Shown here piece after piece: positions 19,137 to 62,996 of a stretch of 64,000 bases of DNA. The stretch comes from a virus (Duplodnaviria; Caudoviricetes), in IMG/VR virus record IMGVR_UViG_3300022555_000004. The stretch is one strand, 5' to 3'. A program made the translations under genes and the position numbers. Under the pieces are notes generated by a model. That model saw only the letters and a program-made list of their open reading frames with translations, did not search any database and was not told the DNA's origin. How positions within the stretch are numbered: the stretch's first letter is position 1; every line of letters starts with the position of its first letter.

Positions 19137-19195
19137 ATATATCCGGCTGCCCTGTTGCTAATGCATATTTTACCACATAAAAAATACAATGTAAA
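19137..19195 (+). repeat. ~59-bp dispersed element, copy 1
   Basis: Near-identical to the reverse complement of 61577-61634. Confidence 0.85.
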
Positions 19196-21955: not shown

Positions 21956-24900
21956 ATGAATAAAGGAATAGAAAATTCACAATTGAGTGAAATGGCAAAA
22001 AGAATATTTTTGGATTTGTATAGTTTCAGTGATGAAACTATTGACGATACATTCAAACGGGTTTCAAAAGAATTTGGTAACGATGATGATGCTAAATTAG
22101 CATATGACTTAATGAAGAAAAATATATGGCGTCCATCAACACCGATATTTTTTAATTCGGGGTCAACGAAAAAGATTTTTTCGGCATGTTGGGTGGTAAA
22201 CCTTGATGATAGTATGGATAGTATATATGATGTAGCAAATGTTGCAAGAAAAATCTTTCAGAGCGGTGCTGGCATTGGTATTCCTATTGGCAAGTTGCGT
22301 GAAAAGGAAGCTAATATATATGAAGGTCAGGAGAAAACTGATAATGTTCCCAGCGGACGTTCAAGCGGCCCAATATCATTTATGACATTATTTGATGCTG
22401 TTGGGGCAACAACAAAATCTGGTGGTAGAGCAAGACGAGCAGCTATTATGTGTGCTATGCCCATAAACCATCCTGATATTATGGAATTTATCGAATGTAA
22501 AAGTGTTGATGGTGTGTTGTCAAATATGAATATATCTGTATCTGTTACAGATGACTTTATGCAAGCATTCAAAGATAATATACCATATTCTTTGATATCA
22601 CCCGCCAATGGCCCTGTAAAGGAAATAAATGCTAGAGTTATTTGGGATAAGATTGTTGATATGGCACACAAGACTGCCGACCCTGGCGTTTTGTTTATTG
22701 ATACTATCAACAAATTCAATCCTCTGAAAAAAATATTGAAAATTGATTGCACAAATCCTTCGTTGAGGGCAGGAACAAAGGTTATTACTGATGGTGGTAT
22801 ATATCCGATAGAACAATTAGAAAACAAAAAATTTCTTGTTATAAATCAAAAGGGTGAATATTCACCAGCAAAATGCTTTTTATCAGGAAAAGAGAAAGAA
22901 TTGTTTGAAATAACATTAATGGGAGGTAAAAAGTATTATTCAACTGCCGAACATAAATGGCCAGTGTTGAATAACAACATATATGAAAAAAGACAGACAA
23001 CCGACCTCAAATCAGGCGATTACCTACCTATTGTAAGAATGAATTCTCTTGGATATGGTGTGAAGGGCAATTATGATGATGGTTTCGTTATTGGATGGAA
23101 TCTAGGAGATGGATGGATAACAGATAGAAAGGATAATGGTAAACGTCAGTATGGGTTTATATTTAGTAATGAAGATATTGAAAATGGAATATATGATAGG
23201 GTGATGAAAAAAATAACATCAATAACAAATAAAGTATATAATCCTTCAAAGATAGATGGTTGCATTGAATTTAATACAACAAATAATGATTTAGATACTT
23301 TCTTTAGGTCGTATGGTGTTGATAAAAAATCAACTGGGATGCCTTCTAGTGTATGGACAACAGCATCAGAGGAATTTAGAAAAGGGTTGATTGACGGTTT
23401 ATTTTCATCAGATGGTTATGTCGATAAATCTGGAAGCCGATGTGTTTTTTGCAGTAGTAATTATAAATTAGCATCAGATGTTTCAGAAATATTAGGATTT
23501 TATGGAATCAAAACAAGATTAACAGAGTCAACATCATCTAATATATCGTTTCCAAATGGAAAATTATATGGCAGAGCTTATACTAGATATTTCGTACAAT
23601 TGTTCACATCATCATTGATGCATTTTAGAGACATATTTACTCTTTCAAATAATAGGAAAAATGAGTTGATGTGGATGAAAAAATCATTAAATAAAGGTGG
23701 AATGGTATATGATAATATTAAAATAAAGAGTATAACCAAAACAGATATAAAAGAAGATGTGTGGGATATTAGTGTTTTTGATGATACACATACTTTTAAA
23801 CTTTCTCATGTGATCACAGGAAATTGCGGCGAACAGCCTTTGATTCCATATACATCTTGTAATTTGAGTTCAATCAATTTACATAGATTTTGTAGTAATG
23901 ATGGATATAATTTTGATGGACTATATAAAACAGCATACAATGTTACAAGATTGATGGATAATCTTATTGATAATATGGAATTTCCAGATGAACGGTTCAA
24001 AATTAATGTATTGAAGTATCGTCCAATAGGTGTTGGTATTATGGGGTTGGCGGACACTTTATATGAAATGGGTTTGCCATATGATGATAAAGAAGGACAG
24101 ATATTTGCTGAAAAATGTATGAAGATTGTTACTACAGCCAGCTTAGAGGCTAGTTCTGATATAGCAAAGGAAAAAGGAACATTTACTGATTATAAACTTG
24201 TAGAAGATGATGTTTTAGAAATTGTATCTTCTTTTATTGATGACCCATCAGTATTAGAAAAAATTAAAAAATATGGTTTGAGAAATTGTCAACACACAAC
24301 GGTGGCGCCAACCGGAAGTATTGCTTTATCATGTGATTGTTCATATGGTATGGAACCGAGTTTTGGTTTAGTATTTCAAAAAAGATTGGTTGAATCTGGT
24401 GATACATATATTTTAGTCAATCCAATATTCAAAAAGAAGTATGAAAACGAATCATGGTATACACCTGAAATGATTGAGAAAATCGTTCAAAACGGAGGGT
24501 CATTGAAGGGTATTAGAGGAATACCAAAAGAAGTACGTGAAGTATTTGTTGTTGCTCATGATATTAAAGCTAAGGATAGAATTGATATGCAGTCTGTATT
24601 ACAAAAACACGTATCGACTGCCATTAGTAGCACGACAAATTTACCATCCACAACAACAAGGGATGAAATATCTGAAATATATAGATATGCTTATCAAAAA
24701 GGACTGAAAGGTGTTACAATTTATAGGGATGGTTCTAAAAAATTGCAACCCATTTCTTTTTCAAATAAAGAGAAAGTAGAGGTTGTTCCTAATTTTAAAC
24801 GACCTACAAAATTATTAGCAGTTAGACATGAAGTTGAAACCGGCAATGGTAAAATGTATATCATCGTATCAACACATGATGGCAAACCTGTAGAAGTTTT

Positions 24901-25258
24901 TCTTTCAATGGGTAAATCTGGACAATTATTCAATAGTTTTTGTGAGGGTCTTGGAAGAACCGTATCCATTGCGTTACAACACGGAACGCCGGTAGCGGCA
25001 ATCATCAAAACCCTTGAAGGAATAAATTCAGACCGTCCTAATTGGTTCAGGTTTGAGGAAACAGATAAAAAGCCAACACAAATATTGTCGATTCCAGATG
25101 CTATAGCAAAATTATTGGAACGATATTACCTGAATGATAATAAAATCATCAATGTTGAATCAGAAGGTGAATTATGTCTAAAATGTGGTAGATATGCTGT
25201 TATACCTTTTGAAGGATGCCATATATGCACATCATGTAATGATAGTCGGTGCGGATAA
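21956..25258 (+). CDS. nrdJ: class II (B12-dependent) ribonucleotide reductase with intein
   Basis: SACWV, GGRARRAA, NP|CGEQPL, YRPIGVGIMG, TVAPTGS, C-terminal TSCPD-like domain and Zn ribbon. Confidence 0.9.
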   Translation: MNKGIENSQLSEMAKRIFLDLYSFSDETIDDTFKRVSKEFGNDDDAKLAYDLMKKNIWRPSTPIFFNSGSTKKIFSACWVVNLDDSMDSIYDVANVARKIFQSGAGIGIPIGKLREKEANIYEGQEKTDNVPSGRSSGPISFMTLFDAVGATTKSGGRARRAAIMCAMPINHPDIMEFIECKSVDGVLSNMNISVSVTDDFMQAFKDNIPYSLISPANGPVKEINARVIWDKIVDMAHKTADPGVLFIDTINKFNPLKKILKIDCTNPSLRAGTKVITDGGIYPIEQLENKKFLVINQKGEYSPAKCFLSGKEKELFEITLMGGKKYYSTAEHKWPVLNNNIYEKRQTTDLKSGDYLPIVRMNSLGYGVKGNYDDGFVIGWNLGDGWITDRKDNGKRQYGFIFSNEDIENGIYDRVMKKITSITNKVYNPSKIDGCIEFNTTNNDLDTFFRSYGVDKKSTGMPSSVWTTASEEFRKGLIDGLFSSDGYVDKSGSRCVFCSSNYKLASDVSEILGFYGIKTRLTESTSSNISFPNGKLYGRAYTRYFVQLFTSSLMHFRDIFTLSNNRKNELMWMKKSLNKGGMVYDNIKIKSITKTDIKEDVWDISVFDDTHTFKLSHVITGNCGEQPLIPYTSCNLSSINLHRFCSNDGYNFDGLYKTAYNVTRLMDNLIDNMEFPDERFKINVLKYRPIGVGIMGLADTLYEMGLPYDDKEGQIFAEKCMKIVTTASLEASSDIAKEKGTFTDYKLVEDDVLEIVSSFIDDPSVLEKIKKYGLRNCQHTTVAPTGSIALSCDCSYGMEPSFGLVFQKRLVESGDTYILVNPIFKKKYENESWYTPEMIEKIVQNGGSLKGIRGIPKEVREVFVVAHDIKAKDRIDMQSVLQKHVSTAISSTTNLPSTTTRDEISEIYRYAYQKGLKGVTIYRDGSKKLQPISFSNKEKVEVVPNFKRPTKLLAVRHEVETGNGKMYIIVSTHDGKPVEVFLSMGKSGQLFNSFCEGLGRTVSIALQHGTPVAAIIKTLEGINSDRPNWFRFEETDKKPTQILSIPDAIAKLLERYYLNDNKIINVESEGELCLKCGRYAVIPFEGCHICTSCNDSRCG
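22760..23824 (+). mobile_element. intein with LAGLIDADG endonuclease (355 aa)
   Basis: TNP|SLRAGTKV...HVITGN|CGEQ; IGWNLGDG and LIDGLFSSDG motifs. Confidence 0.9.
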
Positions 25259-25865: not shown

Positions 25866-25888
25866 AATTGAAAGGTAGTTTATACTAC

Positions 25889-25966
25889 ATGAGTATAATG
25901 TTAAATGAGAACAGCGGCAGTAGAGTATGGTTTTCATCGGATTATCATTTTGATCATATTTTTTGA
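25889..25966 (+). pseudogene. truncated 5' remnant of metallophosphoesterase gene
   Basis: MSIMLNENSGSRVWFSSDYHFDHIF*; same peptide start recurs at 26621. Confidence 0.85.
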
Positions 25967-25974
25967 AATATTTT

Positions 25975-25982
25975 TATAAATA
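25975..25982 (+). promoter_or_regulatory. T4-type late promoter
   Basis: TATAAATA upstream of HNH gene. Confidence 0.7.
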
Positions 25983-52173: not shown

Positions 52174-54165
52174 TTATCTCCCATTATATTTAAGTTCTTT
52201 TTCAGCCAAGGCCATATCATAATCTATCATTAGAGAAACCATATCAGCAAAAGATATTTCTGGTTCCCATCCTAATATATTTTTTATTTTAGTTGAATCG
52301 CCACATAGATAATCGACTTCGGATGGTCTGAATAAATTTTTATCTATTTCTAGGTATTTATATGGATCTAGATCTAATTTATTGAAAGCGATTTCTAAAA
52401 AATCTCTGACCGAATGTGCCGATCCACTACATACAACAAAATCATCTGGTTCAGTATGTTGTAACATCATCCACATGGCACGAACATAATCTCTTGCATG
52501 GCCCCAATCTCTATGGGCATCTATGTTTCCTAATGTTAATTTATCTTGTAGTCCTAGTTTTATTCTGGTTGCTGCTCGTGTTATTTTTCGTGTTACAAAA
52601 TTTTCGCCGCGTCTTTCACTATTATGAACCTTAAATAGATTTGGCCCTGTTGCAAATGTTTTACTTTCAGTTTGTATATCAAAAAACTCATTTCCCGATG
52701 TATCTATTATATTAATAATCTCATTCCTGTTTTTTGTTACACCCTTACCGAATTTACAATCAATTTTATCTGTTGTAAAACATGTATAATAATATCGTTT
52801 ACCATCCCTATATTCACATTTAACTTTAGGTCTTTGAATTGAGAATGATTTGAATATATAAATTAAACCAAGACATAATGTTGCAGATGATGTCGTAAAT
52901 CCTTTATATTCATATTGTTCATTTCCCTTTTTTCGTCCGTCAGCCGCATAATAACCATCAAAGAAGGCTTTTTTAATTTCTATTGATGAGTTTAGTATAT
53001 ATTTTGGGACTCTTTTTTCTTTATTTTTTGTATATAATAAGCTTCTCAACCATTGACATAATGTTTTTGGACAATTAAATTTTAATGACCATATATCATT
53101 CTTACAATTTTCATATTGGCCGGGCCCACAATTAGACAGTTTATATTGAATACCATATAATGATGAGAACATATCACCATATACCACAAGTTCTTCCTTA
53201 TCACAACCTGTTAATCTTATTTCAGTTCCTTCGGATATACTGCCATCACCACATACAAATCCTAAAAACATGGCAAGTTTTGTATCACTTGATAATGTTG
53301 TATTTTGTGATGGATATGATATATCAAAGACATTATCACCTATTTTCCAATCAGATGTATATATTTCATTATCATTTTCATCAAAAGCAACATGGTCTAA
53401 TGTTGCCTCGTAACAAGATGATACGGTTTGAACCAGTTTCATAGGTTTGTTTTTTTCTTGATATGATGTTCCACCTATTATTTTAGTAAACTCTAAGCCA
53501 TTCCATACATCACATTTTTTATAGTAATCTAATATTCCTTCCCATCTATGTGATTTAAATATATCTCCTATTGGTAATACATCAATTAAATTATTATCAT
53601 CTTTGATTATTAATGGACTTTCATATAAAATTGATTCATGATTGAAAAGTAATCCATTGGTAGCAAACAATCCATATGCTTTTCGATATACATGAACCAT
53701 ATGATATGAGAAGATTTTAGCTACGGCATAAGGACTTTCAGGTTTAAATAATGTGCTTTCATTTTGTGGTGGCAACGATGAACCAAACTGTTCACTGCTT
53801 CCTGCTTGATAGAACCTGGCTTTCGGGCATGCTTTTCGGATTGCTTCTAACAATCTCAATGTTCCTATTCCTGTTATATCAGAAGTAAATTCAGGAACTT
53901 CAAATGAAATCTTTACATGACTTTGCGCACCAAGGGCATAAACTTCATCAGGATTTAAACTATACATCAAATCAACCAAATTTGCCGTTTCCGCCAAATC
54001 ACTGAAATGTAATATAATTTTATCAAGTATATGGTCAATTCGACTATTACTAACACTACTTGACCTTATTATTCCATGAACAATATATCCTTTACTTAAT
54101 AACAATTCGGCCAAATATGACCCATCTTGACCATTTATACCAGTCAGGAGCGCGGTTTTCTTCAT
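52174..54165 (-). CDS. gmd: GDP-mannose 4,6-dehydratase with intein
   Basis: TGINGQDGSYLA, AQSHV..SF, YQAGSSE, SPYAVAK, FNHE|SERRG.NFVTRKI, RDWGHA. Confidence 0.95.
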   Translation of the reverse strand: MKKTALLTGINGQDGSYLAELLLSKGYIVHGIIRSSSVSNSRIDHILDKIILHFSDLAETANLVDLMYSLNPDEVYALGAQSHVKISFEVPEFTSDITGIGTLRLLEAIRKACPKARFYQAGSSEQFGSSLPPQNESTLFKPESPYAVAKIFSYHMVHVYRKAYGLFATNGLLFNHESILYESPLIIKDDNNLIDVLPIGDIFKSHRWEGILDYYKKCDVWNGLEFTKIIGGTSYQEKNKPMKLVQTVSSCYEATLDHVAFDENDNEIYTSDWKIGDNVFDISYPSQNTTLSSDTKLAMFLGFVCGDGSISEGTEIRLTGCDKEELVVYGDMFSSLYGIQYKLSNCGPGQYENCKNDIWSLKFNCPKTLCQWLRSLLYTKNKEKRVPKYILNSSIEIKKAFFDGYYAADGRKKGNEQYEYKGFTTSSATLCLGLIYIFKSFSIQRPKVKCEYRDGKRYYYTCFTTDKIDCKFGKGVTKNRNEIINIIDTSGNEFFDIQTESKTFATGPNLFKVHNSERRGENFVTRKITRAATRIKLGLQDKLTLGNIDAHRDWGHARDYVRAMWMMLQHTEPDDFVVCSGSAHSVRDFLEIAFNKLDLDPYKYLEIDKNLFRPSEVDYLCGDSTKIKNILGWEPEISFADMVSLMIDYDMALAEKELKYNGR
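52621..53634 (-). mobile_element. intein with LAGLIDADG endonuclease (338 aa)
   Basis: NHE|SILYES...FKVHN|SERRG; FLGFVCGDG and FFDGYYAADG motifs. Confidence 0.88.
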
Positions 54166-54166
54166 A

Positions 54167-54793
54167 TTATACCTCCATAAACAATTTTGTTATATCACTC
54201 TTTCTTTCTTCATTTATCCGACCATGACATCCACCATGACATTTGATACATAATGTTATTAGATTGTCTTCTGAACAATTAGATTTATCATAATCTTTAT
54301 GGTGAACTTGATTGCTTTTTTTGGCTCCACATAATTGACATAAATAGCCATCCCGCTCTCTAATTATTTTCTTCAATTTATTTGTAAATTTACCACCATA
54401 ATAAGTGAATGATGTGGATGTGCCGCCTTTCCATTTTGGATTTTTATCACCAGAACTATCCCAATGGGTTTCTTTTACTCTGTCGCTAATTTTCTTTCTA
54501 ACATCAGGTCTTTTGGAAGGATTATTATCACCTGATAGATATACATCTGAACATGGTTTACAGCAAAATTGCCTATTTCTATGTTTATATTTTATATCAA
54601 ATATTATATGACATTGTTTACATTCTATTGATATCAAAGGTGTTTGCCTTTCAATATGTTTTTTACCTTTGTTTTTTAGTCCATTATGTTTTTTGGCACA
54701 TAACCCCGAGCAAAAAGCTCTATTTTTATTTCTTTTATTATCAGGAACTTCAAAATCTACATTACATTGTTTACATTTTATTATTTTCCTCAT
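54167..54793 (-). CDS. HNH homing endonuclease with N-terminal Zn fingers
   Basis: CQLCG...VHHKDYDK.N..EDNLITLC..CH. Confidence 0.88.
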   Translation of the reverse strand: MRKIIKCKQCNVDFEVPDNKRNKNRAFCSGLCAKKHNGLKNKGKKHIERQTPLISIECKQCHIIFDIKYKHRNRQFCCKPCSDVYLSGDNNPSKRPDVRKKISDRVKETHWDSSGDKNPKWKGGTSTSFTYYGGKFTNKLKKIIRERDGYLCQLCGAKKSNQVHHKDYDKSNCSEDNLITLCIKCHGGCHGRINEERKSDITKLFMEV

Positions 54794-54869: not shown

Positions 54870-54917
54870 TTATTGGCCATTTATACCAGTGATCAAGGCT
54901 ACTTTTTGTTTGCCCAT
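54870..54917 (-). pseudogene. truncated 5' remnant of gmd
   Basis: AGGAG SD, MGKQKVALITGINGQ*; matches gmd start MKKTALLTGINGQDG. Confidence 0.85.
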
Positions 54918-55232: not shown

Positions 55233-55847
55233 TCAATATCTCCTTTTATATATTATATCATTTTTTGTTTTGAAATCTATTGTGTAAAATGGTTCTAGTG
55301 TCCTATTTAACTTATCGGCATCAATCTTGTCAACCTCAATACAAAATATTTTAGGATAATACTTTCTATCAATTTCTAATATTCCATCTATAGCTTCTAA
55401 TTCATGCCCCTCAACATCTAATACGAATAAATCAATTTGTATATTCTCAATAAAGACCTCTGAAAACTTAACACATTCCACATCAAACGTAATATATTTG
55501 AATGTATCGTCATGTTCCACTTTATCATGATATGTCAATGAACCTATACCATATACAATGGAACTATTTTCTTTTATACAATCAGTAAATTGCGATGTTC
55601 TATGTGAATTTGATAACGCATAATTTAAGTTTCGACAATGTGGCCTGTTTTGAACTAACTGACTATATAATCTATCAACAGGTTCAATATTTATTCCTTT
55701 CCATTTTAAACATCGTTCCAAAGTGAAACATGTATTTTCTGATATACCATCAGCCGCTCCACATTCTACAAAGAAGCCGTCTTTCTTATTTCGGAAATAT
55801 CGTTTTATCAAAAGTTCATCTAATTTATTCTGTCCATAATATCTCAT
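55233..55847 (-). CDS. FkbM family methyltransferase
   Basis: YYGQ, FFVECGA.DG...NT, GINIEP, LDVEGHE. Confidence 0.88.
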   Translation of the reverse strand: MRYYGQNKLDELLIKRYFRNKKDGFFVECGAADGISENTCFTLERCLKWKGINIEPVDRLYSQLVQNRPHCRNLNYALSNSHRTSQFTDCIKENSSIVYGIGSLTYHDKVEHDDTFKYITFDVECVKFSEVFIENIQIDLFVLDVEGHELEAIDGILEIDRKYYPKIFCIEVDKIDADKLNRTLEPFYTIDFKTKNDIIYKRRY

Positions 55848-58800
55848 ATGTCAATAATCTCATTCAAATATTCTTTTGTATTTTTAGCTAAAACGATATT
55901 TTTATACATTTCTTTATTTGTATCATATAACCAATTCATTATAGGTGTGGTTTTATCATCTTTGAAACTGATTGTTTTCTTGGCAACTACACTAGATATA
56001 ACAAAGTTACCGCCTGTACCAATACAAATAACACCCTTTGCCTTATTCATAACATAACAATCGTGTTTTATATTTTCTATTTTTGGAACCGTGGCATCCA
56101 ATGATGAAATCGACAAATCAATAATATATTTTGCTCCTAAATTTTCTATAATGTCGTCATATATACAAAACGTATTTTTCTTGACATCTTTTTGTTTATA
56201 TTCGGCAACATCAGCCAGCGCTCGTTCACCAAGTATAACAATTTTATATTTTTTCCGTAAATCTTTTAATATTCCCCAAAACCCATATGATGTAATAGAA
56301 CTTTTATATTTTTTATAATCAAAGGTTCTTACTTTTGTTGTCAAAACAATATAATTATTCTCTTTTAATCCCTGTGGTAATACATCAGATACATTACAAA
56401 AGTATTTTTCTAAAGAATGGTTTTTAGGAATAATTTTTAAATCATCAACATACGTAAGTTCTTTCATATGATCATAGTCTTGGTCGTCTGTTATCGTATA
56501 TTTATCTGTATCATCAAACAATAACGACAATAGGGATGCACAGAATTTATAATATACATTGTTGCCATCCCGATAATTATCAATAATTTCTTGACTAGGC
56601 GATATATAGATTTTATCGTATTTATTTTTGATTTCATCTAAAAATAATTTGTTATATACTATATCACCAATACCCATATAAGATTTTAGTTTTAAGATTG
56701 GTTTTTTATCCATTTTTCCTAATTCTGATAACCAATAAATAAATTTATCAAAATCAATAGTCAAATAGGCATTAGATTTAACTTTACACCAACGATGATA
56801 TAATTCGGTAACTAAAGGTCGTTCATCTTCTTCCCAAAATCCTAATACCTTTCCTGCCATCAATGTCAAACAGAAACCACCACCCATACCTAGTGTTATA
56901 TTATATTCAGCGTCCTTCATATACATACAGTCTTGTTGCAGTCTTTTTAATGTTGCTGATGTTGTTGGTGTATATGATAAATCAACTATATTTTCTTTTG
57001 GAATATTGTCTATAATATCTTTGTATATAACGAATATGTTGTCTGTTTGGTTATTATATTCCGGCCAATTAGGAAGGTTCTGTTCACCTAATATAACAAT
57101 CTTATATTTCATTGATACATCTTTCAATACTTTATAAAATTCATCTTTATGTTTTTCATATGTTGATTTTTTTAATGCTCTGATCTTAGTTGTGATTGTA
57201 ACATATGGCCCAATGTTTAGATATTTACCTTTACAAATTAAACTTTGTAAGTGTTGTGGACTAACAACTTGAATCAAATCACCACCATATAATGTTTCAG
57301 TATTTCGTTTTTGAAAGGATAGATCATTATGTGATTCATAATACGGATCAGAAAACAACAATTTCATATAATCCATTATATATCCTTTCTTGTATGCTGG
57401 TGTTCTCAATTCATCAAAAAATTCGGTATTCGGAGAAATAAGAACCTTACTATATCTATCTTTAGTATAATCCATCATGGCCCTAATCAATAAAAGGTCG
57501 CCAAACCCCATATTAACTTTCATTTTGAATACTGGTTTTTTATCTAATAGTGAGTTGAGTTTTAGGAAAAATGCTTCAATATTATCATATATAAAGGTGC
57601 CAGGATAATTTTTTTGTTTGAATAATATAGGATTGACATCACATGGATTATTTTTAGAATAATAACCAATAACCTTTCCGACAGCTGTTGCCATACAAAA
57701 CGGCCCGCCATTACCAAAAGTTATGTTGTATTCAGCATCTCTCATATAAAGGCATTCTTGTTTTATTTTAGCAATCCTATTTCCCTTTATGGCATTCAAT
57801 GTTGTAAAGGTCAAATCAACTATACGGTCTTTTGGAATAACGTTAATTATGTCATAATACATACTATATACACGATCTTTTAAAATAACTTGTTCCTTAT
57901 ATTTTAAAAGTTCACGTTCACCCATAAGGACTATCTTATATTTGGCAGATAATTTTTTCAATATGTTCAAGAAACGTGCTTTTATTTGTGTGTTATATTC
58001 GGTAATTAGAAGTTCTCTTACTCTGGTGGGAATAACAAGGTATGGGCCAATATTTAACGGTTGCCCCTCACATAGTTCATCTGATAAATTTGGTTTGACT
58101 ATATCAACTCTGTCTATACTTGAAAATGTCCAAGCAAATCTTGGCGGATAGTTCTTATTAGGAACATCTATCGTATAATAAGGCTCTTTGAATAACATTT
58201 TTAACATTGACATCGTAAATGCTAAATCATCTTTATTAGGTTCTCTATATGTGTTGTATGATTCTATATTAGGTGAGATAATAACTTTTTTATATTTATA
58301 ACTTAGATTATCTAATATACTTCTGGAATATAACAAGTCGCCAATACCAAGATTGATTTTCACCTTATAAATTAAATTAGATGGTTGCTTTGTAACATAA
58401 GAATCAATGGATGGGGTTGTCAAAGCATATACAGGTAATTTACCAGCTTCTATTCTATCAATAGGAGCATATAATGTTCCACCACCACATAGTCGTATAA
58501 TTTTTTCTCGTATCTTATTATAATTAGAAGTTGCTGAAATATCCTTCAAACCACTTCTCATATTTCCTCTACGGAATATTACAGCATCAGTTGATATAAA
58601 CTTATTCTGTTCTTGTGATGAAAATGCTTTTTCGGGATCATCTATTGAGAAAACAATAACAGGACATTGTTCCTGATATAAAAAAACAATTTTTTCGATA
58701 TAATCTGTGTGTGGAGTAATATCTTTTGGCAACATAATAATCAAATCATCGTTTGATATGTTTTTTATTTTATTATTGATTTCTTTGAGCGGACGTTCTG

Positions 58801-58870
58801 ATGACAAAAGGATCACTTCGTATCCTTCTATATCGACTTTTTTATAGTCATAGGCAAAAATATAAACCAT
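55844..58870 (-). CDS. multi-module glycosyltransferase-like protein (three tandem GT9/GT-B-like repeats)
   Basis: Three ~280-aa repeats: G.GD, KYKIV..GE., A...I..G.GG. Confidence 0.7.
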   Translation of the reverse strand: MVYIFAYDYKKVDIEGYEVILLSSERPLKEINNKIKNISNDDLIIMLPKDITPHTDYIEKIVFLYQEQCPVIVFSIDDPEKAFSSQEQNKFISTDAVIFRRGNMRSGLKDISATSNYNKIREKIIRLCGGGTLYAPIDRIEAGKLPVYALTTPSIDSYVTKQPSNLIYKVKINLGIGDLLYSRSILDNLSYKYKKVIISPNIESYNTYREPNKDDLAFTMSMLKMLFKEPYYTIDVPNKNYPPRFAWTFSSIDRVDIVKPNLSDELCEGQPLNIGPYLVIPTRVRELLITEYNTQIKARFLNILKKLSAKYKIVLMGERELLKYKEQVILKDRVYSMYYDIINVIPKDRIVDLTFTTLNAIKGNRIAKIKQECLYMRDAEYNITFGNGGPFCMATAVGKVIGYYSKNNPCDVNPILFKQKNYPGTFIYDNIEAFFLKLNSLLDKKPVFKMKVNMGFGDLLLIRAMMDYTKDRYSKVLISPNTEFFDELRTPAYKKGYIMDYMKLLFSDPYYESHNDLSFQKRNTETLYGGDLIQVVSPQHLQSLICKGKYLNIGPYVTITTKIRALKKSTYEKHKDEFYKVLKDVSMKYKIVILGEQNLPNWPEYNNQTDNIFVIYKDIIDNIPKENIVDLSYTPTTSATLKRLQQDCMYMKDAEYNITLGMGGGFCLTLMAGKVLGFWEEDERPLVTELYHRWCKVKSNAYLTIDFDKFIYWLSELGKMDKKPILKLKSYMGIGDIVYNKLFLDEIKNKYDKIYISPSQEIIDNYRDGNNVYYKFCASLLSLLFDDTDKYTITDDQDYDHMKELTYVDDLKIIPKNHSLEKYFCNVSDVLPQGLKENNYIVLTTKVRTFDYKKYKSSITSYGFWGILKDLRKKYKIVILGERALADVAEYKQKDVKKNTFCIYDDIIENLGAKYIIDLSISSLDATVPKIENIKHDCYVMNKAKGVICIGTGGNFVISSVVAKKTISFKDDKTTPIMNWLYDTNKEMYKNIVLAKNTKEYLNEIIDI

Positions 58871-58883
58871 TTAAAAAAACCAT

Positions 58884-59501
58884 TTATCCTTTTATCTTTT
58901 TTATTGGTGTTCCAACATATGTACCGGATTCAGGAATATCTTTTATAACAACACTACCCATTCCTATCGTAACAGTATCCGTTATATTTATATCTTCGAT
59001 ACAAGAAGAATTGGTGCCAAAGTATATTTTTTTGCCTGTTTTTACTTTTCCACTAATATTGACACCCGGCGCAGTTGTAAAATAGTCGCCTAAAACACAA
59101 TCATGCCCTATAGTTGTTGATAAATTTAAGATTGAAAAATCACCAAGTTGTATATCACAAGTCAATATTGTTCCAGCACATATAATAGTTCCCTTACCAA
59201 TATTTATTGTTGAGGGATCTAATAATTGAACAGTTGGATCACATAATACGGGAAAACGCGCATAGGGAAATTTTTGTAATATATTATTGACAACCTTTGA
59301 TCGTAACGATGGATTGCCTAATGCTATAACTATAGGGATAGCAGGATTATAATATTCTTCACTTATAACAGGAACACCATAAATTGGTTCACCATTTTCT
59401 TTATCAACAAATGCTACTGGCGTATGGCCTAATCGTTTTACCAACGCGTATACTTCCTTTGCAAATCCACTTGCGCCAAAAATATTAATATTCATATTCA
59501 T
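58884..59501 (-). CDS. NeuD/PglD/PerB-like sugar N-acetyltransferase
   Basis: IFGASGFAKEV, IALGNP..R, hexapeptide repeats, IGHD, YVGTP. Confidence 0.9.
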   Translation of the reverse strand: MNMNINIFGASGFAKEVYALVKRLGHTPVAFVDKENGEPIYGVPVISEEYYNPAIPIVIALGNPSLRSKVVNNILQKFPYARFPVLCDPTVQLLDPSTINIGKGTIICAGTILTCDIQLGDFSILNLSTTIGHDCVLGDYFTTAPGVNISGKVKTGKKIYFGTNSSCIEDINITDTVTIGMGSVVIKDIPESGTYVGTPIKKIKG

Positions 59502-59785
59502 ACTATGCCCACATCATCTAAAAACCTTTGAACTTGTCGATTTTGAACCACATTAATTGTTCTTTCTACAATTATACGTATTTCCGTTCTTATATTGCCT
59601 GTAATTGCATCTGGTATCAGAGCAACACTATATTGTGCGTCTATATGTGGCTTCAATGAAGAACCATAATTAACTATGCCCTGCGGAATACCAACGTGTC
59701 CTTTGGGCCCATTATGGCCAACTGGCCCAACTGACCCTGTTGGCATATCATCTTTTTTCTTTTTTACAATCAAATCTTCAAACAT
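59498..59785 (-). CDS. hypothetical protein with short G-X-Y stretch
   Basis: GSVGPVGHNGPKGHVG. Confidence 0.45.
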   Translation of the reverse strand: MFEDLIVKKKKDDMPTGSVGPVGHNGPKGHVGIPQGIVNYGSSLKPHIDAQYSVALIPDAITGNIRTEIRIIVERTINVVQNRQVQRFLDDVGIV

Positions 59786-59790
59786 AATTT

Positions 59791-60720
59791 TTATCCTCCG
59801 ATTATTTTACAGATTTCTGAAATCCTTTCTCTATCATCAATTTTTGGTATATTAAAAAATTGTGCATGTTGCCCTTCTTCAGCATAGTCCTTGATGCCAA
59901 ATGCCGTCCAATAATTAGGGTCATCTCCATACAGTCTGGACGGTGCGCTGAAACTAATAAACTTTTTATCCCTATTCAACATGTTTTCACTAACATAAGA
60001 AAATGTGTGAGGGCCGGAATTTCTTCCAATCAACACATCACACTTTGTACTCAAATAACTTATTTCATTCAAATCATTTCCATTACAATCGCCTAATAAA
60101 CCAGATACATAAATGATGTTATCTCCTACTACATTACTTTTATTTGATATATAAAACATTATATCTGGAAATGTTCTGGATAATTCTAATATAATAGGAT
60201 CAAAATCAAACCTTATCGCCTGTTCAGAACCAAATTCATTGTTACAAATTAAAACCTTTCTACATAATGTATCAATGGCATCAATGGGATTAGTGTTATA
60301 CATACCACATTTATAATTTATTTTCGGTAAGAACTGTTTATAATCCTTTGATAATTCTAGTTCAAATACTTCATTTAGAGTTTGATTGAATATATTCCAT
60401 GCGGTAAGAAGTGTGGCACTATGTTTATTGAAATGCGTCCCATTATATGCTAGATATTGGGTATTGATGAATAGTGTGTTATATTCAATATGATACCCTC
60501 TATTATCAAATGTTTTTGGGATTTGTTTAGATGTCCAATACAGAGGAATGCCTAAATCACCCAATGTTTTTATTGATTGTGGGTGGTTTAATCTATACTC
60601 ATATCCATGTATTTTATTTTTGATATACCAGATAAAAGTTCGTATACAATGAAGATCACCTGCGTTGAAATAGTTGCGAAAAACTATAGTATTAAATTTT
60701 TTACTTTTTGACATGACCAC
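59791..60720 (-). CDS. GT-B/GT9-like glycosyltransferase
   Basis: YFNAGDLH, DLNEISYLS..CDVLIGRNSGP. Confidence 0.7.
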   Translation of the reverse strand: MVMSKSKKFNTIVFRNYFNAGDLHCIRTFIWYIKNKIHGYEYRLNHPQSIKTLGDLGIPLYWTSKQIPKTFDNRGYHIEYNTLFINTQYLAYNGTHFNKHSATLLTAWNIFNQTLNEVFELELSKDYKQFLPKINYKCGMYNTNPIDAIDTLCRKVLICNNEFGSEQAIRFDFDPIILELSRTFPDIMFYISNKSNVVGDNIIYVSGLLGDCNGNDLNEISYLSTKCDVLIGRNSGPHTFSYVSENMLNRDKKFISFSAPSRLYGDDPNYWTAFGIKDYAEEGQHAQFFNIPKIDDRERISEICKIIGG

Positions 60721-61427
60721 CCCACAAATTGATTTCTATACATACTCATATATGGTAAATCGTTTTCTCTACAAAAATTTTTTAATCCATCAACCATTTC
60801 TGTTACGCCATCTGGATATATAACCTGCCACATTTTAGTATTTGATATTGTTTTATATTTACCTCTTTTTTGTCCAGTTCTGCTTTTAATCATTTTTTCT
60901 TTAGTTTCTTCTGTATGTTTTTTCCCTTGTCTTGTATTACTCCAATTGTCTAATGTTTCTTTAGTATATACCCCTGTTTTTCCTTTATTCCAAGGGATAT
61001 GCCCTATATGTGATTTGCTCATTTTTTCTATCATATCAGATGAAAATACAAATCCTGATTGGCCATCGCCGCCATTTGTAAGATTACATAATGGCCCTTC
61101 ATGTAAATTCTTTCTTCCAATGGTTAGTATCATTGATACTTCAAGTTCAAGGGCCGATTGTTCTGATATATTATCTTTATATGGTATGATAAATGGATCA
61201 TGGCCACATGTTCTTTGTATTTTTTTAATTGTATTGACAAATAATTTGTTAGAATTAACTTTGAGATTATATTCAGTCAAATGTTTTGTTGATCGCTTAC
61301 CGTGCCCCTTACCGACATAAAATGGCGCATGGTCAAATGTATATTCGCCAAATATATAACGGCCTGGTTTTGTTGGATCAAGATATACATAGACATAAAA
61401 AATTGGTTCATTGTGTTTTGTTTTCAT
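60684..61427 (-). CDS. GIY-YIG-related homing endonuclease with NUMOD3
   Basis: FYVYVYLDP...PFYVGKG...L.NLT.GGDG, GKKHTEETKEKM; GGAG SD favours ATG 61427. Confidence 0.85.
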   Translation of the reverse strand: MKTKHNEPIFYVYVYLDPTKPGRYIFGEYTFDHAPFYVGKGHGKRSTKHLTEYNLKVNSNKLFVNTIKKIQRTCGHDPFIIPYKDNISEQSALELEVSMILTIGRKNLHEGPLCNLTNGGDGQSGFVFSSDMIEKMSKSHIGHIPWNKGKTGVYTKETLDNWSNTRQGKKHTEETKEKMIKSRTGQKRGKYKTISNTKMWQVIYPDGVTEMVDGLKNFCRENDLPYMSMYRNQFVGWSCQKVKNLIL

Positions 61428-61566
61428 AATGTACTCCATGTTGTATTTCAATGTATTTATAATTTTTTGAAATAATTTCAAACACGGATGGTTTATGTTG
61501 TAAAATAAAGAAATCACCATTATTAAAGTAGTTACGAAACACAATAAAATTAAATTTATTTTTCAC
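61408..61566 (-). pseudogene. 5' remnant of the GT gene at 59791-60720
   Basis: VKNKFNFIVFRNYFNNGD matches KSKKFNTIVFRNYFNAGD; contains TATAAATA at 61454-61461. Confidence 0.8.
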
Positions 61567-61576
61567 ATTTTCACCG

Positions 61577-61634
61577 TTTACATTTTATTTTTTATATGGT
61601 AAAATATGCATTAGCAACAGGGCAACCGGATATA
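61577..61634 (-). repeat. ~59-bp dispersed element, copy 2
   Basis: Near-identical to 19137-19195. Confidence 0.85.
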
Positions 61635-61778
61635 TAAATTTTGGAAATTGAGTAATTTGAATATTTTACCTTTTAATTTATATAGATTTTTGTTATAGAT
61701 TTTTATACATTTTACATCAATTTTTAGATAAATTTTAGACAATAAAAAACCCTATACTTTTCAATATAGGGTTTAATA

Positions 61779-62114
61779 TTAGTATCCATTCATTTTAGAT
61801 TCAAAATAAATATCTTCAATTCCAGCATCAAATAATGTTGATTTATGAATATACCATTCTAACAAAATTGATCTAAACCATAGTGGCATATCTTCACAAT
61901 TATTATACATTGAGGTATGGCCTTCAAGTTTAAATACATGTTGGGATACTTGTGTTATATCATCCTTATGAAAACTCATTTCCTTATATGATATATTTGA
62001 TGTAAGCCGTTCCATTCGTTCAATAAAATCATCTAAATTAGTATCTTGTGTTGTAATGAACAGATAGAAACTAGCGGAAGACGAATTTGTTACATGGTCT
62101 AATTTTACTTTCAT
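61779..62114 (-). CDS. 'VTNSSS' family protein 3
   Basis: MKVKLDHVTNSSSASF. Confidence 0.75.
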   Translation of the reverse strand: MKVKLDHVTNSSSASFYLFITTQDTNLDDFIERMERLTSNISYKEMSFHKDDITQVSQHVFKLEGHTSMYNNCEDMPLWFRSILLEWYIHKSTLFDAGIEDIYFESKMNGY

Positions 62115-62115
62115 T

Positions 62116-62478
62116 TTAATATCCACCATCCCCTTGCATAATTTCTATTTCATTATCATCAAACTCAACACCATATAATCCTTCGTCACAAAGGTATTGT
62201 CCTAAACCAGCATCATCACTTGAAGCACTAAGGATTACTATATTTTGACCTTCTTTCAATAATTGAAGGCATTTTTTATAATAGTCATCCGTTTCTGTAT
62301 AACCATAATCCTCCATATAGGTAATCAATTCTTCTTCATTTGTTATAATATTTTCTATCAGGGTAGATAGATCAAAAGATATTTTTGCCTTCAACGGTTT
62401 GGTTGATAATCTTTTAGGAACAGATATAACAAATGATGTGCTTGAACTATTGGTTACAAAATCTAATTTTACTTTCAT
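62116..62478 (-). CDS. 'VTNSSS' family protein 2
   Basis: MKVKLDFVTNSSSTSF. Confidence 0.75.
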   Translation of the reverse strand: MKVKLDFVTNSSSTSFVISVPKRLSTKPLKAKISFDLSTLIENIITNEEELITYMEDYGYTETDDYYKKCLQLLKEGQNIVILSASSDDAGLGQYLCDEGLYGVEFDDNEIEIMQGDGGY

Positions 62479-62479
62479 A

Positions 62480-62869
62480 TTAGTTATACCAAATTTCATC
62501 AATCCAATCAGCTTGTTCAGCAATGCCTAGTTCAGCAAGAACATCATTGACAGATTTTTTGATATCACCGACAGTCATATCATCTGGCATATCTTGTGGG
62601 GTGATACCTATATAAATATTTTCACTATCATTGTCAGTTGTAACTGAAAGTTTCTTTGATGATAAGTAGGCATCTAAAACATCATATATAGCATCTTCTT
62701 CATCAACCGCTAATTTGTATTCATTATATGTTTGTTCTGGTTTCTCAAATTCATATAATTTACGAATAAGATCTTCATTTTCCATCAAATCATTTCGTTC
62801 TAGTGTTACACCCCAAGCGCAGAACGATGTGCTCGAACTATTTGTTACAAAATCCCTTTTTACTTTCAT
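62480..62869 (-). CDS. 'VTNSSS' family protein 1
   Basis: MKVKRDFVTNSSSTSF. Confidence 0.75.
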   Translation of the reverse strand: MKVKRDFVTNSSSTSFCAWGVTLERNDLMENEDLIRKLYEFEKPEQTYNEYKLAVDEEDAIYDVLDAYLSSKKLSVTTDNDSENIYIGITPQDMPDDMTVGDIKKSVNDVLAELGIAEQADWIDEIWYN

Positions 62870-62996
62870 TTTCCTTTCCTCCATCAACAAATTTTATTTT
62901 AAAACCACAACTTGTACAAATATAATACATTCCCCCAACCGCCAACTTTATGAACAGATTTGCAGTTGGGGCAAACGATTATTTCATTATTCATTT

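Follow-up and report, generated by a model that had tools for sequence, protein, structure and literature searches.

A duplicated gene start surrounds a GIY-YIG endonuclease gene at positions 59791-61566 (minus strand) of the viral record IMGVR_UViG_3300022555_000004, which derives from an uncultured, T4-like lake phage. The stretch was analyzed over its full length of 64 kb, referred to as the window; L-numbers (L005, L012, L015, L017 and so on) denote loci from relatives. The gene with the duplicated start encodes a putative glycosyltransferase, called the transferase below. We consider it likely that a free-standing GIY-YIG homing-endonuclease cassette is located within codon 18 of this gene, that the whole gene has been rebuilt downstream of the cassette, and that a stub of the old gene was left upstream. 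An earlier note, made from the sequence alone, had placed the nuclease between a truncated and a complete copy of one gene start, and this arrangement was recovered with the remnant at 61566-61513 and the intact gene at 60714-59791.

Anatomy of the duplicated gene start

The locus is composed of the following parts, given in the direction of transcription.

61747-61774, minus strand: intrinsic terminator (12-bp stem and T run) closing the upstream operon
61577-61635, minus strand: native upstream block of the transferase gene, aligning with the DNA ahead of the native start in nuclease-less L012, L017, L018 and L005 and in L015
61513-61566, minus strand: remnant, the resident GTG start and first 18 codons (VKNKFNFIVFRNYFNNGD), collinear with nuclease-less orthologues
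61408-61566, minus strand: remnant open reading frame (ORF) as listed among the ORFs, 52 codons, 18 native and 34 from the cassette leader
61425-61497, minus strand: leader hairpin (predicted fold), with the Shine-Dalgarno sequence (SD) GGAG at 61437-61434 and the AUG at 61427 paired
60684-61427, minus strand: GIY-YIG/NUMOD3 endonuclease ORF, 247 amino acids (aa), TAG stop, identified with Pfam and PHROG
60712-60725, minus strand: new ribosome-binding site (RBS) GTGGGGTGG, then TC, then the ATG of the transferase, read from the sequence within the last nuclease codons
59791-60714, minus strand: intact transferase gene with its ATG at 60714, beginning MSKSKKFNTIVFRNYFNAGDLH, 307 aa, modeled with a GT-B fold

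The duplicated core comprises 43 nucleotides (nt), R1 at 61557-61515 and R2 at 60699-60657, which agree at 32 of the 43 positions. Third codon positions account for seven of the 11 differences, in line with what the earlier note had stated, and the other four lie within two changed codons (F/T and N/A). Homology of the remnant to its orthologues ends after GGTG, within the GAT codon of the invariant Asp. The break is located directly behind the conserved N-terminal FNxGD motif, as had been proposed. Beyond VKNKFNFIVFRNYFNNGD the remnant ORF continues through unrelated sequence until a stop at 61408, 20 nt beyond the nuclease start codon. A leader of 85 nt separates the remnant from the nuclease ORF, for which an alternative ATG is present at 61439, and the sequence pointed out earlier in this spacer, TATAAATA at 61461-61454, is a T4-type late promoter. 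The nuclease and transferase ORFs overlap by 31 nt in different frames, and the new translation signals of the transferase lie in the nuclease ORF.

The nuclease stop codon (60684-60686, minus strand) is TAG in the window and TAA in L015. An exact 11-mer, TTTACCATATA, occurs at 61593-61603 and at 60749-60759 (minus strand), at similar offsets 5' of the native and the new start. For an extension of the duplication upstream into the last nuclease codons, shuffling gave p 0.005 for this 11-mer in the window; no equivalent was found in L015 (p 0.5).

The assignment of the enzyme to the GIY-YIG family was substantiated by matches to Pfam PF22945 LEM-3_GIY-YIG (36.9 bits, cut-off 27) and NUMOD3 (33.7 bits, cut-off 20.4) and to PHROG 314, 'homing endonuclease' (E 2e-10). 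Across 25 aligned homologues, YVY (residues 11-13), YVG (37-39), R45, E96 and N115 are invariant or nearly so. R45, E96 and N115 were matched to R27, E75 and N90 of I-TevI according to where they lie in the fold, and not through an alignment of the two sequences. In the AlphaFold model, a helical linker joins a confident N-terminal GIY-YIG domain to a small C-terminal beta-beta-alpha-alpha-beta domain that is likewise confident. Foldseek with the full model returned weak matches only (I-HmuI, the GIY-YIG enzyme PD-T4-3, the DNA-binding and catalytic domains of I-TevI, and UvrC), and a phmmer search of the nuclease against PDB gave no hit. A group I intron or intein setting was considered and rejected: an Rfam search of 59500-62200 detected no family at E<=1 and no group I intron, and the Intein_splicing profile reached 17.4 bits, under its cut-off of 35.8. 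The downstream gene starts independently, and its orthologues align with it from end to end. Based on the Pfam, PHROG and motif matches, the lack of an intron and the sub-threshold intein profile, the nuclease gene is free-standing and of the GIY-YIG type. Between the window and L015, nonsynonymous (dN) and synonymous (dS) divergence of the nuclease were 0.17 and 0.94 (dN/dS 0.18), and those of the transferase 0.22 and 1.38 (dN/dS 0.16). Judged by its ratio of 0.18, the nuclease is under purifying selection and is a maintained protein.

The label of glycosyltransferase given in the earlier note stood in part. No Pfam family and no PHROG hit was obtained for the transferase, which has 140 homologues in metagenomes, and the support came from structure prediction. 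Its AlphaFold model (pLDDT 90, pTM 0.90) matched GT9 heptosyltransferases and other GT-B enzymes best in Foldseek (E 1e-7 to 1e-8), including the GT9 structure 3tov (E 5e-7) and heptosyltransferases at E 2.5e-8 and probability 1.0. According to the model, the host gene product has the two-Rossmann-domain GT-B fold. Since UDP-GlcNAc 2-epimerases have the same fold, 'GT-B fold enzyme' is the safe label. The FNxGD motif corresponds to the loop behind the first strand, with a G and a D that do not vary among family members. A sugar-modification cluster begins with this gene and further comprises a PglD-like acetyltransferase, a 1008-aa protein of three modules, an FkbM methyltransferase and Gmd. 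Each of the three similar modules of the 1008-aa protein (55844-58870, minus strand) starts with x-Y-K-V-K-I-N-L-G-I-G-D, a loop motif resembling the FNxGD start of the transferase, and this protein likely consists of three fused GT-B-like units.

The resident start and relatives without the nuclease

The DNA 5' of the remnant, the GTG and the first codons align with the region directly ahead of the single gene in L012, L017, L018 and L005. The downstream copy is preceded by the last nuclease codons and has a start that is two codons longer (MSKxxKF vs native M/V-x-K-KF), a form found in no nuclease-less orthologue. This match in upstream DNA, GTG and N-terminus identifies the remnant, and not the downstream copy, as the resident start. 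The cassette includes at least the new RBS and start, since the two-codon-longer start is common to both lineages that carry the nuclease.

According to the earlier note, its reading would be refuted by relatives that lack the nuclease and yet carry both copies. This refutation did not occur, as the nuclease-less relatives turned out to be single-copy: L017, L012-14, L018, L005/6, L010/11 and dozens of more distant family loci, and no second copy of the motif was detected in nuclease-less L005-L014. In L012-14 the order is NUDIX gene, 115-nt spacer, transferase gene. Every contig encoding the identical transferase also has the nuclease and both copies.

The same cassette is present in a second, diverged lineage. 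The closest relative of the nuclease, P0122, is encoded in L015/L016 and shares 70% identity according to the search tool and 68% in our own alignment. Gene order is as in the window (NUDIX ... nuclease, transferase, PglD-like), and the insertion is at the same nucleotide. L015 shows the native upstream block, GTG, KRKFETIVFRNYFNNG, the break after GGTG, a homologous leader with TATAAATA, and the nuclease; downstream of it follow ATG-TCA-AAA-AAT-ATA and a full copy, with the same new RBS motif and the longer start. DNA identity between the window and L015 is 73-83% across upstream region, remnant, leader, nuclease and gene. Over this ~25% divergence, the IVFRNYFNNG codons of the remnant have acquired synonymous changes only, a pattern more easily reconciled with renewal from functional alleles, or with conversion by the downstream copy, than with a stub that died long ago.

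L017 contains no cassette, and its gene is 88-95% identical to that of L015. Identity between the two is lost exactly behind the upstream repeat and regained where the downstream repeat begins. Presence (L015) and absence (L017) of the cassette are thus a polymorphism at one site with sharp borders. The single repeat of L017 combines the left part of the L015 upstream copy (AGA) with the right part of its downstream copy (AAT TTC TTT), with one extra difference. Such a mosaic, which contains few informative sites, is what either co-conversion, with the cassette homing into an L017-like allele, or precise, repeat-mediated loss would produce.

Other searches were negative within their scope. Blastn of the region against 50,697 phage records gave no match. 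Single-sequence searches of viral contigs with both proteins gave no match either, and alignment-based scans did yield matches. No contig from four lake-water runs over 59000-62600 joins the remnant to the gene without the cassette, in a set of short pieces and of contigs that drop rare variants.

Upstream of the locus, an operon with a radical-SAM gene, a NUDIX gene and three small tagged proteins ends at the terminator (61774-61747), which L018 has at a matching relative position, and ~200 nt of non-coding DNA lie between the terminator and the GTG at 61566. The three tandem small proteins (61779-62890, minus strand), which surfaced in the duplication scan, have the common N-terminal tag MKVK-x-DFVTNSSS-x-SF. 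The native upstream block at 61577-61635 is probably a promoter/5'UTR (untranslated region) cassette. This block of 59 nt occurs twice in the window, at 19137-19195 (plus strand) and 61577-61635 (minus strand), with 95% identity. Both copies are located 11-17 nt ahead of a start codon, the block is conserved before transferase orthologues in other phages, and it holds a MotA-box-like aATGC(A/T)TAT and TAnnnT. We regard it as probably a repeated promoter/5'UTR cassette. Many assemblies break 40-180 nt upstream of the gene; we considered these contig breaks as a hint of presence and absence of the cassette and rejected this, because the repetition of the 59-nt block in the window explains them.

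Two other explanations of the remnant were considered. It could be the leftover 5' end of a tandem transferase paralogue that was mostly replaced or deleted when the nuclease arrived between two paralogues. Full tandem paralogues do exist in relatives (L007/L019 with the 271-aa upstream paralogue P0054, L031 and L100), and among ~165 family loci the only other upstream matches were full tandem paralogues or internal repeats of the downstream multi-domain protein. However, homology in all these matches extends past GD, in the paralogues into the helix, whereas that of the remnant ends at GD. Furthermore, the upstream block and GTG at the remnant are orthologous to those that stand directly before the single gene in L012, L017 and L018. 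Remnant and downstream copy also have common lineage-specific residues (KFN in the window, KFET in L015), while the paralogues differ strongly. With homology stopping at GD and an orthologous upstream block, we rejected a paralogous origin as very improbable. The 271-aa gene upstream in L007-L009 was also considered as a further nuclease and was dismissed, being the transferase paralogue P0054 with no nuclease signature. A chance resemblance or an assembly artefact is hardly conceivable. Although the region is AT-rich and short-read contigs end ~40-60 nt upstream of the remnant, these ends are accounted for by the 59-nt repeat, and the identical layout was found in independent assemblies from several studies and in the diverged second lineage. 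When each ORF start was compared with its own 2.5 kb upstream (ungapped BLOSUM62), the remnant/intact pair scored 70, among the top scores of the window, against a maximum of 40 for mismatched-pair nulls in a comparable scan, and translation of the 64 kb in all six frames revealed the family motif only twice. Chance is excluded on these grounds.

Proposed mechanism and its alternatives

We propose that the cassette consists of a hairpin leader with a late promoter, the nuclease ORF, and a new RBS and ATG that overlap the 3' end of this ORF. Behind the new start, a second copy of the 43-nt segment (native codons 4-18) makes the gene complete again, and the resident promoter region, the GTG and the first 18 codons stay upstream as the stub. 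The sequences themselves show this anatomy and its strict association with the nuclease, single copies in nuclease-less alleles, equivalent junctions in the L015 lineage, purifying selection on the nuclease and a recurrence of the layout at another gene. The nuclease would cut nuclease-less alleles in or near the conserved GGTGATCTCCA region, and phage recombination with UvsX and gp46/47-type functions would copy the cassette, with the stub side and the gene body serving as homology arms. Genes for UvsX-like, SbcC-like and SbcD-like proteins (gp46/47-type) are present in the window, as is NrdA; this gene set fits the T4-like assignment. The NrdA-like ORF (21956-25258, plus strand, 1100 aa) matched the profile of the ribonucleotide reductase large subunit in two separated stretches and may hold an insert. 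An occupied allele would not contain the full target, as the upstream copy lacks the right-hand context and the downstream copy the left-hand context. Recombination between both repeats could excise the cassette precisely and give back the native gene.

The nuclease would be produced late, from the promoter in the hairpin loop. Hairpins of ~73 nt are predicted in the window and in L015, with minimum free energies of -12.9 and -16.7 kcal/mol. In both, the SD and AUG of the nuclease pair with the upstream arm, whose sequence differs between the lineages, and TATAAATA is found in the apical loop. The 5'UTR of the late transcript is predicted to be unstructured (-0.4 and -0.3 for window and L015). 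The leader is the most conserved part between both lineages (83%). RNAalifold on the two-sequence leader alignment gave a different small hairpin owing to alignment gaps, and single-sequence folds were used instead. The predictions suggest a T4-type control in which only earlier, longer transcripts would form the hairpin that buries the SD and AUG. A late promoter within an RBS-hiding hairpin has been described for I-TevI, I-TevII, I-TevIII, segB and Aeh1 mobE (PMC2988022). Translation signals of the downstream host gene inside the nuclease ORF are known from several seg and mob genes and disfavour imprecise loss (PMC2988022).

How the occupied allele might escape its own nuclease deserves separate consideration. 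Near the insertion point, the downstream copy of the window (AAC GCA ... CTT) departs from the consensus of the family. A long bipartite target, as in I-TevI-type enzymes, could extend to the left of the repeat and be incomplete in both copies. Taken further, the duplication itself could be the safety device for homing into a gene, a strategy that might be termed 'start-replacement homing' and be general in T4-like phages, for GIY-YIG and HNH enzymes alike. The target, with its cleavage side near the start codon and its binding side across the GD|LH codons, would be split between two incomplete copies ~0.85 kb apart, neither of which is cut. The spare start would keep the protein whole; the native start would provide the left homology arm and might also act as a leader ORF whose translation opens the hairpin. 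We put this generalization forward tentatively, as an idea that may well turn out to be wrong.

Several observations weigh against homing of the cassette as outlined here. Cleavage, homing, the target site and self-immunity are inferred. The downstream copy of L015 differs from nuclease-less L017 at 3/43 positions, none of them around the insertion point, and the two are identical from 19 nt before to 40 nt after it. Since L015 matches a nuclease-less allele there, recoding cannot, as far as these sequences tell, be a general protection, and self-immunity of L015 is left unexplained unless the target reaches upstream of the repeat. L017 itself is represented by one low-coverage contig of 1.2 kb. 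Nuclease and host gene are about equally diverged between the lineages (pS, synonymous differences, 0.54 vs 0.63), and these comparisons consequently give no sign of recent transfer or exchange between the window and L015 lineages. A single old insertion that was passed on vertically and later lost in L017 explains the data no less well than repeated homing does, and because the lineages in question form a polytomy in the transferase tree, one gain is indistinguishable from two. In addition, the z-scores of the hairpin are weak (-1.1 and -1.4), and the fold rests on two sequences.

These points lead directly to the alternative that one ancient insertion preceded the split of the lineages and was inherited vertically, possibly as an immobile passenger, with L017 arising by precise deletion between the 43-nt repeats and without any ongoing homing. 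The uniform divergence between window and L015 over all parts (about 73-83% DNA identity), the similar synonymous divergence of nuclease and gene, and the resemblance of the L017 repeat to a recombinant of upstream and downstream copy all speak for it. A passive passenger, however, would lose purifying selection and an intact catalytic core, and the nuclease has retained both. The merely synonymous changes in the IVFRNYFNNG codons of the remnant also fit renewal better than a long-dead stub, and the same layout arose at other genes. We therefore regard an ancient passive insertion as possible, though on balance doubtful. It is also conceivable that the retained native start is functional, either as a leader ORF that tunes expression of the nuclease or of the downstream gene via the 5' arm of the hairpin on read-through transcripts, or as a half-site operator of the kind that mediates autorepression at the late promoter of I-TevI. 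RBS, start codon and frame of the remnant are kept in both lineages, the remnant ORF stops inside the 5' arm of the hairpin in L015 (beyond the hairpin in the window), and I-TevI binds a homing-site-like operator at its own late promoter (PMC2988022). Yet neither ORF length nor stop position is conserved (52 codons in the window vs 30 codons to the stop in L015), a remnant at another locus, that of L251 described below, has an in-frame stop, and leader and target region show no similarity beyond AT-richness. The same facts would be expected if the remnant were merely the left homology arm, and a function of the retained start hence appears improbable to us. Insertion of a homing-endonuclease cassette into codon 18 remains our preferred reading.

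Recurrence at other genes and relation to known elements

The earlier note had suspected a general mechanism behind this layout. This is supported by the same cassette at the same nucleotide in L015/16, by a Thg1-like gene in three further phage lineages, and by two HNH cases in the window. Among 80 viral loci with relatives of the nuclease that were scanned, three exceeded the null. L233 and L236 (both above the null) as well as L251 contain a GIY-YIG gene before a Thg1-like gene, with a 12-codon copy of the gene start upstream of the nuclease. The additional cases are listed here.

L233/L246, 1905-2760: Thg1-like gene (tRNA-His guanylyltransferase family), GIY-YIG gene distantly related to the window nuclease
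L251, 640-1510: Thg1-like gene, GIY-YIG gene likewise distantly related
L236, about 1870-2775: Thg1-like gene, GIY-YIG gene likewise distantly related
Window, 25885-25960, 25983-26600 and 26620-27126, plus strand: HNH case at a metallophosphoesterase gene, layout extending over 25885-26680, MSIMLNENSGSRVWFSSDYH before and after the HNH gene
Window, minus strand: HNH case at gmd, with Gmd at 52174-54165, an HNH-like ORF at 54167-54793 and a 15-codon remnant, MGKQKVALITGINGQ, at about 54870-54917, then a stop

The Thg1-like gene has a single start in 23 nuclease-less relatives. Copies beside the nuclease all have KNLS, whereas native alleles and remnants have LG, and this pattern points to a cassette-borne start at the Thg1-like gene as well. 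In the metallophosphoesterase case, a stop and a frame change lie between the second MSIMLNENSGSRVWFSSDYH copy and the metallophosphoesterase ORF. The gmd remnant MGKQKVALITGINGQ stops directly behind the Rossmann loop. Gmd (663 aa) also has a LAGLIDADG_3 segment mid-protein, an intein-like insert. With this segment inside and the HNH-like ORF in front, gmd holds two different selfish inserts.

The nearest phage precedent is the T4 MobA element (mobA HNH gene, HomR and the gene 60 bypass cassette; Bonocora et al. 2011 as cited in bioRxiv 10.1101/2022.08.31.505936). As far as the element is described in that citing source, it is likewise an in-gene nuclease cassette that carries a homologous copy of the target segment (HomR), inserted at the same site in several clades, with clean identity breaks against nuclease-less relatives and sometimes precise 'hit and run' loss. 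According to the same account, MobA differs in using an HNH enzyme and in having deleted 55-75 nt of native sequence, whereas a GIY-YIG enzyme is found here and the native start is kept as a stub. The MobA-invaded gene is, in that description, split into two polypeptides that must reassemble and its site is protected by translational bypass; here a whole protein is made from a new start without bypass. Deletion and splitting of the MobA type do not apply to this locus, where only 18 of the 52 codons in the stub ORF belong to the family and the downstream gene is complete.

The T4 Seg endonucleases and I-TevI resemble the cassette in their modular build of a GIY-YIG domain and NUMOD3-type DNA-binding helices, in the late promoter within an RBS-hiding hairpin, in host-gene expression signals embedded in the nuclease ORF, and in their spread via phage recombination (PMC2988022). 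However, seg genes are intergenic and I-TevI resides in a self-splicing intron (PMC2988022), while the insertion described here is within an ORF and is neutralized by a duplicated gene start. In fungal mitochondria, free-standing GIY-YIG or LAGLIDADG genes are found beside a truncated extra end of the neighbouring gene (atp9 N-terminus, atp6, cob, cox1; PMC7487136, PMC6279837). Those copies are organellar, mostly C-terminal, and viewed as pseudogenes that arose as by-products of recombination and not as a start-replacement device (PMC7487136, PMC6279837), and unlike the phage cassette they come without late-promoter and hairpin control. Fractured genes with split inteins share with our locus a nuclease gene that interrupts an essential phage ORF at a conserved motif while host function is preserved. 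There, function is restored by protein trans-splicing (PMC2677866), whereas no intein was detected here and the downstream gene is complete alone. The word 'duplicat' is absent from a 2010 review of T4 mobile elements (PMC2988022), and our literature searches turned up no description of start duplication in phages. Taken together, in-gene entry with a spare gene start is real and recurring, and it is not unprecedented.

Homing endonucleases favour highly conserved coding DNA, yet they must spare the invaded gene, and the textbook solutions are self-splicing introns and inteins. The cassette described here offers a different solution, in that it supplies a spare RBS together with a start codon and the initial codons, while the old start stays where it was. 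If homing by start replacement holds true, it would be a third solution, beside introns and inteins, for insertion into conserved coding DNA. If the layout is general, it would account for the many short 'orphan' ORFs before nuclease genes in large phage genomes, and also for N-terminal variants of adjacent genes and for gene-calling errors nearby. The pairs of occupied and empty alleles provide natural material for the study of co-conversion in uncultured phages. Furthermore, the target sites of uncharacterized GIY-YIG and HNH enzymes, which are possible tools, would become predictable as the conserved codons at the border of the duplication.

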